From IMG/VR virus record IMGVR_UViG_2531839439_000012, positions 1 through 4,790 of that record: a stretch of 4,790 nt of DNA; one strand, 5' to 3'. The notes beneath the pieces are model-generated. The model was given only the letters and a program-made list of their open reading frames with translations. It ran no database searches and was not told the origin of the DNA. The DNA is from a virus. Its lineage: Duplodnaviria > Heunggongvirae > Uroviricota > Caudoviricetes. Below, one piece after another: positions 1,052 through 4,790 of the stretch (position 1 is its first letter; each line of letters opens with the position of its first letter). A program made the position numbers and the translations under genes.

Positions 1052-1449
1052 GTGTGTGATGATGTCCGTCAGGACATGTAAGGCGGCATGATGAAGTTTC
1101 ATGTGACGCAGATGTCAGCCCGCCGAAACCGGGGAGAACGTGTATATGTCACGGGACAGCGCAACGCGCCGCCTGCCAGACCGCCTTTTAGCGGGCATTC
1201 ACCGAGACGAGCGGCGCAAGACGGGAGTCGGACAGTCATTGATGAAGCCGTTCGATGGAATTGATGACTGACAGGCCGTCTTTTTGAGCCGGAATTTTCA
1301 AACACAGACCCTGATGTGTTATCAGCGGTAATGTTTTACTCGTTACAATTTGCGCACTCTGTTATGTGGCAGTGGACTGGTACATACGGAGGCGGACATA
1401 ACGTTGGTGGAGACGACCATCCACAATTCATTACCTTAATTTTACCAGC

Positions 1450-1487
1450 GCGCCTTATAGTTACCTGATTTATAAGGCGCTTTTTTT
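1450..1487 (+). terminator. Rho-independent terminator (10-bp perfect stem GCGCCTTATA / TATAAGGCGC, 11-nt loop, T7 tract)
   Basis: Stem left 1450-1459, loop 1460-1470, stem right 1471-1480, then TTTTTTT 1481-1487. On the opposite strand the stem is not followed by a T-run, so it is oriented for + strand transcripts. Confidence 0.65.
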
Positions 1488-1547: not shown

Positions 1548-1577
1548 TTCATTACGTTAAAAACGACATGGGTATAT

Positions 1578-1616
1578 ATCAGTACTGATTTTACTGGAAA
1601 AACTGGATTTTCAGTA
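1578..1616 (+). repeat. 12-bp perfect palindrome ATCAGTACTGAT overlapping phased TACTG/ACTGG repeats separated by A4/T4 tracts
   Basis: ATCAGTACTGAT at 1578-1589 is its own reverse complement. ACTGA 1584-1588, ACTGG 1593-1597 and ACTGG 1602-1606 are direct repeats at exactly 9-bp spacing, with an inverted copy CAGTA at 1612-1616. The intervening TTTT/AAAA tracts are phased near one helical turn. Confidence 0.4.
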
Positions 1617-1769
1617 TCAATCCCAAAGAAGTATGGCTAATGCAGCTTTATAAGCAATTGATTCTATTAAGCGATGTTTTTTGTGATTGGTTGAAGCAAA
1701 CCTGAACACGAAGTCACTGAAGCGGCAATAAACTGTTTCATGGCGGAATTATTAGAGTAAAGAACAATC

Positions 1770-1804
1770 GGAGGTATCCGCACAACGCGGATATACAGGA
1801 CATG
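1770..1804 (+). promoter_or_regulatory. Structured translation-initiation region of the TMP gene: SD GGAGG (1770-1774), then a 7-bp stem-loop (1775-1793), then 8 nt, then ATG 1802
   Basis: TATCCGC (1775-1781) and GCGGATA (1787-1793) are exact reverse complements around loop ACAAC. GGAGG is 27 nt from the ATG in linear sequence, but folding would leave an effective spacing of about 8 nt. No other in-frame start lies between the upstream stop (1718-1720) and 1802. Confidence 0.3.
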
Positions 1805-3703
1805 AGTAACACAAACGTAGGTAGAATTTATTATGAGGTTGATGCGCGCACAGGGAAGCTATTAACCGCAGGGAAACAAGCTGACGACGCATTCGATCGC
1901 ATTGAACGCGGCGCAAAGCGCGCTGATAACTCAATCAACAAACTGAATACGACAATCAGCAAACTGGCGGCGGCGGTTAACGTTGGCCTGCTAATGATGG
2001 CGGCTAAACGCTTTATTGAAATCGCGGACAACGTAAAACTACTACGCGCCCGTGTATCCCGGCTATCCGGTAGTCTGGTTGAAGCTAAGGCTAATTTTAG
2101 CGGCATTCTTGAGATCAGCAAGCGAACTGGCATGAAGATTGAGGATACTACGAAGTTATGGGAAAACCTTACTTCAGCTTTGTCTGATTCAAACGCTACC
2201 AGGGGCCAGATCTTACAGTTGACAGAGACACTACAGCAGATCGGGCGTATTGGTGGTAGTTCATCCGAAGAAGCCGCAAACGCCTTGCGACAGTTAGGGC
2301 AATCTATTAACGGCGGGATTGTCCGTGCTGAGGAATTTAACAGCATCCTGGAGGGTATGCCGGAGCTATGGCGGCGCGTAGCAAGTCAGATGGGGATCTC
2401 AATGGGTGAGCTACGTCGCCGCATGTTGGATGGCAAACTGACGGCTGAGGATGTAGTAAATGCAATCCTGAAAGGATCAGGCGAAATCGAAAAAGAATTT
2501 AACAAGCTGCCGACAACCACGGAACAGGCAATGACAGAGCTATCAACAAATTTTAGCCTGTTACTGGAAACCATCGACCAGACGCTGCATGTTACTGAAC
2601 TGGTCGGTCGCGGTATTAAAACGCTGGCTGATTATTGCCGCGAGCTATCCGGCTGGTTTAAAACGCTGAAATCTGATTCTGCGTCATTGGCTGATAAGTT
2701 ATGGACACTTGCCGCAGCCTTTGAGCCGTTTGTGCCGGGCCTTGATTTATTCCGCGCTCAAGCCAAACAAACCGACTTCTTAGGCGCAGCGCCAGACAAT
2801 CAATCTACGGGTTTTGTGTCAACGCTACCGACACAGCAGGCCACCACTGATATTAAGCTGAAAGACAATGGCGGTGGAGGTGGCAATAAACCGAAACGCG
2901 CGCAGAAAGATCCGGCAGAAGAATCGCTGAAACGGAAACGCGCAGAACTGGAACGACTTAACCAGGGCTTTGCTGAGGGTAGCAAAGAGGCTGAAATGTG
3001 GGACGCCGTTCAGGAAATGGGCGCTAACGCAACGGCAAAACAGGTTAGTGAGATGAAAAACCTTGCGCACCTGATTTACGAAACAAACGCCGCGCGTGAG
3101 CATCAAATCGAACTGGAAGAAAAAGCAAAACAGCTTAATGAGCAATTTAATCCCGTTGATGCGCTCAAACAACGCCATGCCCTTGAAATGCAACAGGCTG
3201 ATGAGCTATTCAACAAACAGATGATTAACGAGGAAACGCTAAACGCGCTTAAACAACAGCACGCAGAAGAATTGCTTGCCTCGCAGTGGGAACAATTCCG
3301 GGCGCAAGGTGGGATTAATGGCCTGATTGGTGACATGGCTGATGGCCTGAGTGGTGGCGCTACAAATGCCGTTGTCGGCCTGCTTAATGGTACGCAGAAC
3401 CTGGAAACCGCTTTCGCCAATATCGGGACTACCATTCTCGGAAAAGTGGTGGGAAGTATCGCTGAGATGGGCGCTGAATACGTCAAACAAATGATCTTAA
3501 GCGAGGCAGCCAGCGCCAGCGCAATGAGCGGACAAGCGGCAACAGGCGCATCAATCGCATCATCAATGGCCCCGGCAGCAGCGGCGACAGCTACCGCGAC
3601 AATGGGGACGGCCCCGATGGTCGCAATGTCAGCTATCAGCGCCTTGATGGCTGGCATTACTGGCTTGTTTTGGCGGTGGTCGCTACAACGGCGGCGCGGT
3701 TAA
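1802..3703 (+). CDS. Phage tail tape measure protein-like (N-terminal TMP domain, K/E/Q-rich coiled-coil, Gly/Ala-rich hydrophobic region); frame as given ends prematurely at 3703
   Basis: 633-aa ORF. Residues ~150-230 (LRQLGQSINGGIVRAEEFNSILEGMPELWRRVASQMGISMGELRRRMLDGKLTAEDVVNAIL) match the conserved tape-measure N-terminal domain as I recall it. A long charged helical segment (KRKRAELERL...QQHAEELLASQWEQFRAQ) is followed by a Gly/Ala/Ser-rich hydrophobic segment, as is typical of TMPs. The ATG at 1802 is the first start after an in-frame stop at 1718-1720. Confidence 0.85.
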   Translation: MSNTNVGRIYYEVDARTGKLLTAGKQADDAFDRIERGAKRADNSINKLNTTISKLAAAVNVGLLMMAAKRFIEIADNVKLLRARVSRLSGSLVEAKANFSGILEISKRTGMKIEDTTKLWENLTSALSDSNATRGQILQLTETLQQIGRIGGSSSEEAANALRQLGQSINGGIVRAEEFNSILEGMPELWRRVASQMGISMGELRRRMLDGKLTAEDVVNAILKGSGEIEKEFNKLPTTTEQAMTELSTNFSLLLETIDQTLHVTELVGRGIKTLADYCRELSGWFKTLKSDSASLADKLWTLAAAFEPFVPGLDLFRAQAKQTDFLGAAPDNQSTGFVSTLPTQQATTDIKLKDNGGGGGNKPKRAQKDPAEESLKRKRAELERLNQGFAEGSKEAEMWDAVQEMGANATAKQVSEMKNLAHLIYETNAAREHQIELEEKAKQLNEQFNPVDALKQRHALEMQQADELFNKQMINEETLNALKQQHAEELLASQWEQFRAQGGINGLIGDMADGLSGGATNAVVGLLNGTQNLETAFANIGTTILGKVVGSIAEMGAEYVKQMILSEAASASAMSGQAATGASIASSMAPAAAATATATMGTAPMVAMSAISALMAGITGLFWRWSLQRRRG

Positions 3704-3995
3704 CGGTGGCAATCTTTACAGGGTTGGTGAGCACGGTGTCCCTGAGTTATTTACCTCTACTGGCGGGAAACAGTACATGATCCCCGGCGAGGGTGGACGA
3801 GTTACACCGGGCCGCGATCTGGTTGGCAGTGGTGGCGGCATCACACTGAACGTAACAAACAACATCCAGGCGACAAACGGCTGGACTGAAGACGACTCAA
3901 AAGCGTTGCAACAGACTATAGAAAACACAGCAATGCGCCTGATGCAGCGCGAGTCGCAAAGACCTGGAGGCATGTTACAACCACGGCGGCGTTAA
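3672..3995 (+). CDS. C-terminal segment of the same tape-measure-like protein, in the +1 frame (frameshifted continuation); the 6-frame track shows its ATG-initiated part as 3777..3995
   Basis: The frame with codons at 3672, 3675, ... is open from 3648 to the TAA at 3993-3995. It encodes GGGRYNGGAVNGGNLYRVGEHGVPELFTSTGGKQYMIPGEGGRVTPG..., which resembles the conserved TMP C-terminus (compare phage lambda gpH ...GNLYRLMRGY... and the common ...YRVGE.GPEL... pattern). Both frames are open across 3648-3703, and the junction sits at the T4 run 3668-3671. Confidence 0.6.
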   Translation, partial: GGGRYNGGAVNGGNLYRVGEHGVPELFTSTGGKQYMIPGEGGRVTPGRDLVGSGGGITLNVTNNIQATNGWTEDDSKALQQTIENTAMRLMQRESQRPGGMLQPRRR

Positions 3996-4165
3996 CCAAA
4001 TCCCACGCCAGGGGGATAGACTGGCGGACCTTCAAAGACGGTCGCACACCGTGTTTAACATAATTTATTGTTTTTTGCTTGCTCTTATTATTGCAGCCGT
4101 TAGAGTTGGCGTGGCAGTTTTTCACCTGTTTCGCGTGTTGCTGTGTTTTTGGGGAAGAAAAACAA

Positions 4166-4261
4166 ATGAGAAGGCTTATATACCTGGTATTTATGCTATT
4201 TGCTATCGGGCAAGCCATAATTTTTATCACAATGCTGATCTGTCTGATGCTCTTTAGTTAA
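4166..4261 (+). CDS. Candidate small hydrophobic membrane peptide (31 aa: MRRLIYLVFMLFAIGQAIIFITMLICLMLFS)
   Basis: ATG at 4166 is preceded by GGGGAAG (4151-4157) at about 8-nt spacing. The peptide has a basic N-terminus (RR) followed by one predicted transmembrane helix. It is the internal-start version of the 60-aa ORF 4079..4261. I recognise no homolog, and short ORFs in AT-rich DNA are often spurious. Confidence 0.25.
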   Translation: MRRLIYLVFMLFAIGQAIIFITMLICLMLFS

Positions 4262-4790
4262 CTCCACCAGGATCCGCGCCGGGCTTTGCTATACAGACCA
4301 ATCACTCTTAATATAAGCTATTGATTCTTCTTAATTATAACCGCGCGTTAGAATTAACCTTCCCGCCATAAACGCTCCTACGCAAAAATCCCTCACAACT
4401 ACCCTGTCAATTTGCCAGATTTCACGTACACGCGCCCATATCCCCGCTACCGGATACACGCCCGCTTATACCGGACACCGGATAAACAAAGGCCCAGGTA
4501 GTTAGCAACCTACCCAGGCCCCGCGCATGGTTTTAATGCCATCATTATTAAGCATGCTAATACTAATCAAATCATAATTAGCACAACTTATAATCGAACA
4601 GAAAACACACAAACCAGATAATGATTTTTTCTGGTTATACTTATCTAAAAAAGTGGTATAGGATGTAACTTATTATTTTGTAAGGATAAATTTATTGCGT
4701 GGTAAGATGAACAGGCTTGTGCACCTCCCGAAAAACACGCGAAAATCAAAGTGTTCTTTCTTTTTTTGTTTTTATTTTTTCATTTTCTCT

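Follow-up and report, generated by a model that had tools for sequence, protein, structure and literature searches.

In the Ff filamentous phages (f1, M13 and fd), the non-coding stretch after gene IV, the gene for the secretin, holds the packaging signal and the hairpins of the complementary-strand origin, and both priming and packaging are served by hairpins in single-stranded DNA. Transcription of the gene IV unit ends in the same intergenic region and, in f1, termination after gene IV is Rho-dependent. The + strand is the packaged strand in inoviruses. The Ff origins have been located in the intergenic region (PMC5405960).

Phages of the CTX type integrate by means of a hairpin formed in their single-stranded DNA, and YpfΦ and CUS-1Φ have been classed among these elements (PMC4246890). 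XerC cuts at the border of the left arm and the spacer, and the bases beside the XerC arm decide the integration target (PMC4246890). YpfΦ is reported to rebuild dif at its 3' end (PMC4266046). The reviews on CTX-type elements that were consulted make no mention of a terminator upstream of attP.

The DNA analysed here (the window) is a stretch of 4,790 nucleotides; coordinates refer to its + strand unless stated otherwise. Positions 1-1051 hold the 3' part of a phage secretin gene (pIV/GspD-like; Pfam Secretin, E = 1.4e-25), the last of a rightward operon, whose stop codon lies at 1049-1051, and this is the only inovirus gene that the window contains. The window is a complete 4,790-bp draft contig (AQCR01000005.1, from GCA_000354495.2); its break falls within the secretin gene and is probably due to the filamentous prophage occurring more than once in the source genome. 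Comparison with related prophages identifies 1052-1545 as the non-coding right tail of an inovirus prophage whose integration is of the CTX/YpfΦ/CUS-1 type and whose right end is at 1545.

The original prediction for this region was of a strong terminator about 400 bp beyond the secretin stop, with no + strand ORF of 60 aa or more in between, that might end either a separate small RNA or small-protein locus or else the operon after a long 3' untranslated stretch. Neither the end of a filamentous prophage nor a dif-like recombination site figured in that prediction. The gap measures 399 nt, from the secretin stop to the start of the hairpin stem at 1450, and the list of ORFs agrees that none of that length is present on the + strand between 1052 and 1450. 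It is the last of these readings that is favoured by the co-orientation of the hairpin with the secretin gene, by its conservation and by its position before the attachment site. We consider that 1450-1487 is probably the intrinsic terminator of the integrated filamentous phage's rightward replication and morphogenesis unit, which ends with the secretin.

The phage and its relatives

A secretin 98.6-100% identical to that of the window occurs in 22 of 5,426 complete Escherichia coli genomes, including that of ETEC strain E24377A. These relatives have no annotated integrase; they carry Rep, coat, Zot and secretin in 8-kb prophages whose order is small minus-strand genes, replication initiator, small genes, coat, Zot-domain protein and secretin. 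The prophages are inserted beside hipBA, the neighbourhood in which dif lies in E. coli K-12, and some lie in tandem arrays. No classical K1 strain names are found among the secretin matches listed, and the window phage appears not to be CUS-1 or YpfΦ but to belong to a lineage of its own, of which the E24377A prophage is typical. A nucleotide search of a phage collection, in both near and distant modes, gave no match, and a scan of species genomes with the secretin added one distant locus only (L007). The tail is a good deal less similar among the relatives than the secretin, at 80-92% identity; since this is far below the secretin identity, the tail is mosaic.

The arrays at dif in some E. 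coli (L001 9544-9700 and 17466-18170; L010 3025-3200; L011 2987-3160) comprise three tandem prophage copies, partial right-end duplicates and mini-remnants of about 146 nt. The mini-remnants consist of the folded attachment site alone and lie between the prophage end and true dif. The same tail and terminator are also seen in a 9,613-bp circular record annotated as a 'plasmid' of strain JNE25-005 (L009; NZ_AP045060.1), which has in addition an ISEc31 insertion and many broken genes; it looks like the replicative form of a related filamentous phage.

Decayed relics of the tail are found on large plasmids of E. coli and Escherichia albertii (L004 12053-12566 and 14419-14657; L012 5001-5235; L013 5001-5201; L041 2469-2981), beside lpxR and IS remnants and in some cases with a truncated secretin. 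One truncated relic ends at a plasmid Xer-type site, AGTGCGCATAA-CGTACA-TTATGTTAAAT, and the terminator stem and T-tract are intact in the relics. An origin of the window from a phage-plasmid or from the plasmids of about 104 kb was considered and rejected, as those hold only decayed relics.

Further afield, in uncultivated inoviruses with 48% secretin identity, some 480-570 nt of non-coding DNA separate the secretin from an inverted dif-like pair. One of these distant relatives (L038) has a strong terminator immediately after the secretin stop. A terminator between secretin and attP thus recurs, its position being variable. The inverted dif-like pairs of two such phages, uncultivated oral inoviruses from human and lemur saliva (L038 2655-2757; L039 2811-2911), have the arms ATTTCGCATAA or ACTTCGCATAA, and suggest CTX-type integration in hosts whose dif differs from that of enterobacteria.

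The terminator hairpin

The core of the hairpin is a perfect 10-bp inverted repeat in which GCGCCTTATA (1450-1459) pairs with TATAAGGCGC (1471-1480). A G-U pair between 1460 and 1470 lengthens the stem to 11 pairs (1450-1460/1470-1480), so that the loop is of 9-11 nt, being 9 nt for the longer stem, and the T7 tract occupies 1481-1487. The base of the stem is G+C-rich, five of the 11 pairs being G-C pairs located there. When folded as RNA, the segment 1440-1495 has an energy of -15.8 kcal/mol, whereas its shuffles average -6.0 (z = -4.5) and none of 200 matches it. If a comparable hairpin with T-tail is taken to have at least 10 perfect pairs, a loop of no more than 12 and at least six T in the next eight bases, one arose twice when the whole window was shuffled 1000 times with dinucleotides preserved, a rate of 0.002 per shuffled window. 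A terminator scan missed 1450-1487 solely through its loop limit of 8. On the complementary strand no T-run follows the stem.

Among the fetched loci the hairpin was found in 15 copies, representing 12 distinct sequences. Across nine distinct sequences, pairing is kept in 97% of cells, and the loop varies freely in sequence and in length. Two pairs show compensatory change: the basal pair is G-C, G-U or A-U and pair 4 changes from C-G to U-A. At pair 4 the E. albertii plasmid relic has U-G, plausibly an intermediate between the two forms. The covariation score was reached by 4 of 500 shuffles, and pairing falls to 28-64% when the register is slid, although the covariation statistics are modest because the copies represent few independent lineages. 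Past the stem, each of the 15 copies has T at 9 of the first 10 positions. The hairpin shares the orientation of the secretin gene in every related prophage copy, and it lies between that gene and the Xer/attachment site. The 10-bp stem and T7 originally proposed are confirmed by fold, shuffles and conservation alike, and the hairpin is, by every sequence-level criterion, a genuine conserved transcription terminator, which would be expected to terminate transcription in vivo.

A different view of the same structure is that it acts mainly in the single-stranded phage DNA, for example by belonging to a complementary-strand origin or by assisting the folded attachment site about 50 nt away, and that its resemblance to a terminator is only apparent. 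The packaged strand is of the same sense, so that the hairpin would form in single-stranded DNA too, and hairpins of that kind have the established uses in filamentous phages set out above: priming, packaging and, in the CTX type, integration (PMC4246890). The spacing is also suggestive. The phage-derived spacer that separates the terminator from the attachment-site arm, at 1488-1534, is kept in five related copies (L001b, L001c, L002, L010 and L011) and is replaced in three others (L001a, L003 and L009) by a different sequence of similar length, so that the distance from terminator to XerC arm is about 45-55 nt in two tail variants with unrelated intervening sequence. An intrinsic terminator, however, requires a T-tract after the stem and a plain DNA hairpin does not, so that the invariant T-rich tail would go unexplained. 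Together with the lack of a T-run on the opposite strand, the tail points to a unidirectional intrinsic terminator and exceeds the needs of a DNA hairpin. The loop sequence, moreover, varies freely, and three plasmid relics (L004b, L012 and L013) keep stem and T-tract intact though far from any Xer site. We regard a role mainly in single-stranded DNA as quite unlikely; a dual role, as terminator and as DNA hairpin, is possible and would be compatible with our main explanation.

The prophage end and its attachment site

The prophage ends, on the right, in the phage XerC-binding arm AGTGCGCATAA (1535-1545), where homology to all prophage copies stops. It is followed at 1546-1562 by a target-derived spacer, GATTCA, and the XerD-type arm TTACGTTAAAA, both identical to the unoccupied site of strain TOK-001. 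The resulting AGTGCGCATAA-GATTCA-TTACGTTAAAA (1535-1562) is a dif-like 28-bp XerCD site starting 48 nt past the T-tract. A search with 1000-1800 against complete E. coli genomes gave many matches, all ending at 1547-1561.

Strain TOK-001 is without the filamentous prophage, and its empty site (L005 13973-14000), within a cryptic element between eutB and eutA, reads AGTGCGCATTA-GATTCA-TTACGTTAAAA. It differs from the window at 1544, and the TOK-001 sequence to its left is unrelated to the window. Because of these two differences, the crossover between phage and host can be placed, from the alignment, at the border of left arm and spacer, the same border at which XerC is described to cut (PMC4246890). 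From 1563 to 4790 the window is host-side flank, 99.5% identical to the cryptic element of TOK-001. In this flank a tape-measure gene (1802-3995; Pfam TMP_3) is frameshifted by an extra T in a T-run at 3668 and also lacks 12 nt, in frame, at 3534 when compared with TOK-001, where there is a single 734-aa gene; the split gene is either a pseudogene or the product of a homopolymer sequencing error. The flank also contains, on the minus strand at 4489-4522, a 13-pair G+C-rich hairpin with a weak T-rich tail (GGGGCCTGGGTAGG...CCTGGGCCTT TGTTTATCCG), in non-coding DNA at the end of the cryptic element nearest eutA.

The best-defined relatives show what such an end looks like at true dif. Their right ends consist of phage XerC arm, host spacer and host XerD arm, an architecture seen at dif in four loci (L002, L003, L010 and L011) and one that 1535-1562 of the window fits too. 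In two of these (L002 and L003) the right end AGTGCGCATAA is joined to host TGTATA-TTATGTTAAAT, and in strain RM14721 the matching prophage end continues as AGTGCGCATAA-TGTATA-TTATGTTAAAT, a sequence that departs from the canonical dif of E. coli at one of its 28 positions (27 matches). Left ends consist of host XerC arm, an 11-nt spacer and a XerD-type arm, with an inverted partner site, of 5-nt spacer, some 90 nt beyond; this arrangement of ends is the one described for CTX-type elements (PMC4246890). As the window, of 4.8 kb, stops short of the prophage left end, the paired inverted sites are seen in its close relatives, and such pairs are present also in the distant relatives L038 and L039.

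The comparison with TOK-001 and with these relatives indicates that the window prophage is integrated not at dif but at a dif-like (pseudo-dif) secondary site in the eutB-eutA cryptic element. Its junction of prophage and host is absent from all complete E. coli genomes in the collection. The target spacer GATTCA begins with GAT, as does the spacer GATATATGCCG that follows an identical XerC arm in a near-identical relative (L011), and this match fits the published rule that the neighbours of the XerC arm decide the target (PMC4246890). What appears to be a CTX-type filamentous phage of ETEC-like E. coli has here entered a cryptic prophage of the eut operon at a dif-like secondary site. It suggests that CTX-type phages can spread to non-dif sites, plasmid Xer sites among them. 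This integration and the structured module A described below are more noteworthy than the terminator itself.

The position of the hairpin with respect to this site suggests how it would work. Rightward transcription would run through the secretin gene and then through two non-coding modules, A and B (see below), to stop at 1481-1487, about 48 nt before the XerC-binding arm at 1535-1545. In the circular phage genome that arm would be the first half of a CTX-type folded attachment site, and in the prophage it would form the junction with host DNA. Termination may thus insulate the attachment site from phage transcription. In the circular form it might in addition shield the convergently oriented genes of the repressor side, and in the integrated form it might keep phage transcripts out of the host DNA and its flanking genes.

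Module A

The first part of the tail, 1062-1274 (module A), is a conserved non-coding block that also occurs in other inovirus lineages. Copies of 74-79% identity are found in unrelated inovirus backbones (L014, L027, L031, L034 and L037), in each case in non-coding DNA that follows the morphogenesis genes. Three of these phages (L014, L027 and L031), integrated near yhbO, use another replication protein; in another (L034) module A directly follows the secretin stop, with a dif-type site about 55 nt beyond it. Two of them (L034 and L014) have module A without the terminator described here. When viral contigs were scanned with 16-mer anchors the hits were mostly due to chance, and four true copies of the module were left after screening with BLAST. 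Plasmid records matching it number only 14, and no annotated feature explains it; the idea that module A is a plasmid element was rejected, those records that were examined being phage relics.

Two structures stand out in the module. Stem-loop 1 (1062-1077), ATGTCC-GTCA-GGACAT, is paired in 11 of 11 sequences, a U-A pair being replaced by C-G in one of them (L014). Stem-loop 2 (1082-1124) is composite, with helices 1082-1090/1116-1124 and 1096-1100/1105-1109; all of its cells are paired (100%), G-C becoming C-G in three sequences and U-A becoming C-G in two. In the stems of the module three pairs are changed on both sides, a covariation score reached by none of 500 column shuffles. The G-U pairs fit the + strand, which is the mRNA sense. 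As the + strand is both message and packaged strand, the structure could act in mRNA or in packaged DNA.

Module A is probably a cis-acting single-strand element. As in Ff, hairpins of the packaged strand lie in non-coding DNA directly after the morphogenesis genes, and by this analogy a packaging signal or complementary-strand origin is a candidate role. At about 210 nt, the module would be a concrete candidate for whatever serves this phage group as packaging signal or complementary-strand origin. The roles proposed here for modules A and B are inferred.

The structures of module A also bear on another possibility, namely that an RNA is cut from the 3' untranslated region of the secretin mRNA, that the terminator stabilises it, and that module A or B regulates or protects at the RNA level. 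Both modules lie upstream of the terminator and would thus be transcribed, the covarying stems of module A have G-U pairs that fit the + strand, and RNAs of this class usually come from a long 3' untranslated region that has a conserved terminator. Stems acting in packaged + strand DNA, however, predict the same covariation, module A exists without this terminator in the two phages mentioned, and neither a candidate target nor a seed region was found. We therefore hold an RNA of this kind to be unlikely.

Module B and the question of a small RNA

Module B (1275-1520) includes the terminator, and copies about 70% identical to it persist as plasmid relics. Its body, 1275-1449, is non-coding and variable, with indels between copies in an alignment of 14; the stretch 1385-1445 is the most indel-rich part of the tail. 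The original prediction had picked out TACAAT at 1344-1349 as a possible -10 element without a good -35, and this assessment holds: the hexamer is there, and the best -35 candidate is TTATCA with a 19-nt spacer. A hexamer of the form TAnnnT (TACAAT, TATGAT or TATAGT) is kept at this position in nearly all copies, even those of about 70% identity.

This conserved hexamer is one argument for a phage small RNA of about 130 nt with its own transcription start just past TACAAT (at about 1356) and ending at the terminator. A strong terminator is at hand, and RNA of 1355-1490 folds better than its shuffles (z = -3.5). That low energy is owed largely to the terminator, however, and the rest of the putative RNA is poorly maintained: the predicted 5' hairpin at 1357-1391 is broken or deleted in other copies, and the body falls in the indel-rich 1385-1445. 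A consensus promoter scan of 1052-1487 found no promoter-like site, in keeping with the want of an acceptable -35, and a permissive Rfam search of the whole window (E <= 1) gave no family match in the region, its only hit being a chance match to a plant miRNA (E = 0.57) outside 1052-1487. The hexamer, moreover, adjoins an inverted XerC-arm-like motif and may be the relic of a recombination site. With no scored promoter, no Rfam match and a variable body, the proposed separate small RNA locus is not supported, and we judge it very unlikely.

The motif in question, TTTGCGCACT (1348-1358), is the reverse complement of a XerC-arm-like AGTGCGCAAA with 8 of 11 matches, or 9 of 11 in L011. It is followed by a XerD-arm-like TTATGTGGCAG, and GTTATGT (1361-1367) pairs with ACATAAC (1396-1402). 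The motifs of 1344-1372 may be the relic of an old attachment site. The inverted XerC-arm-like motif is lost in the plasmid copies; for this reason, and since its flanks are not complementary, pairing of 1348-1358 with the arm at 1535-1545 to give a second folded site was rejected.

Two observations sit less comfortably with a simple operon terminator. The 399 nt between stop codon and terminator is long, and in the distant relative L038 the terminator lies directly after the stop; because of both facts, the tail could itself function as RNA. Furthermore, the TAnnnT hexamer is kept, and a weak promoter with TTATCA is conceivable. Modules A and B with the terminator might make up a phage regulatory RNA, derived from the 3' untranslated region or from a weak internal promoter, or the hairpin might have a second role in single-stranded DNA by the folded attachment site, for example in positioning XerCD or in priming complementary-strand synthesis. 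We think this rather unlikely, but if true it would mean an undescribed cis- or trans-acting element in the CTX-type inoviruses of enterobacteria.

Small open reading frames

Several small ORFs can be read between secretin and terminator, namely one of 58 aa and one of 50/34 aa on the + strand and one of 68 aa on the minus strand, and annotation pipelines sometimes call one. The 57-aa ORF reported at 1088 exists, with AAGG before its ATG, but encodes 58 aa (1088-1264 including the stop), and that at 1364-1468 also exists, though its stop codon (1466-1468) is in the hairpin loop and not in the stem as had been stated. Precedent for ORFs in such a position comes from YpfΦ, which is reported to have unexplained ORFs beside attR (PMC4266046).

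The evidence that any of these encodes a protein is poor. In most copies the ORF at 1088 has 34 aa and in one 51 aa, that of the window being frameshifted after codon 17 relative to the 34-aa version, and it is without a start in three distant lineages (L014, L034 and L037). The AAGG and ATG at 1088 lie inside the covarying helix of stem-loop 2. Between the window and L014, substitutions are spread over codon positions as 13/21/19, with no third-position excess. The 68-aa minus-strand ORF resembles one in L014, yet the codon-position counts show no coding signal there and it too was rejected. No reading frame is conserved among relatives on either strand of 1052-1487, and searches of the small ORFs of the tail against Pfam and PHROG families gave no match. 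Annotation pipelines disagree, calling differing small ORFs on differing strands in different genomes, and our comparison argues that such calls in the tail are spurious. With neither a conserved frame, codon periodicity nor a family match, the small-protein locus is, on these alignments, largely refuted, and we rate a protein product extremely improbable. The seemingly orphan terminator thus finds its explanation in the phage operon, and the region is no longer a candidate for a small RNA or small protein.

Comparison with known systems

Set beside the enterobacterial Rho-independent terminators, the hairpin at 1450-1487 shares the G+C-rich base of the stem, the immediate T-run and co-orientation with the upstream gene. 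It differs in its rather large loop of 9-11 nt and in its long distance, 399 nt, from the stop codon.

The tail of the window resembles the Ff intergenic region in being a non-coding stretch directly after the secretin gene that contains hairpins and a transcript end. There is, however, no sequence similarity between them, and the Ff phages are without a Xer site. The manner of termination also differs, being Rho-dependent in f1 and by a canonical intrinsic terminator here.

A further likeness is to CTXφ and RS1, YpfΦ of Yersinia pestis and CUS-1Φ of E. coli K1. The window's relatives have an RstA-like Rep, Zot and secretin but no integrase, and they integrate at dif, often in tandem arrays. 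At their left end are two inverted dif-like sites, one of them with an over-long 11-nt spacer, and at their right end an intact dif-type site is rebuilt from the XerC arm of the phage and the spacer and XerD arm of the target. Where the window departs from the CTX-type elements is in the target itself: in place of dif, the prophage occupies a dif-like site within the eutB-eutA cryptic element.
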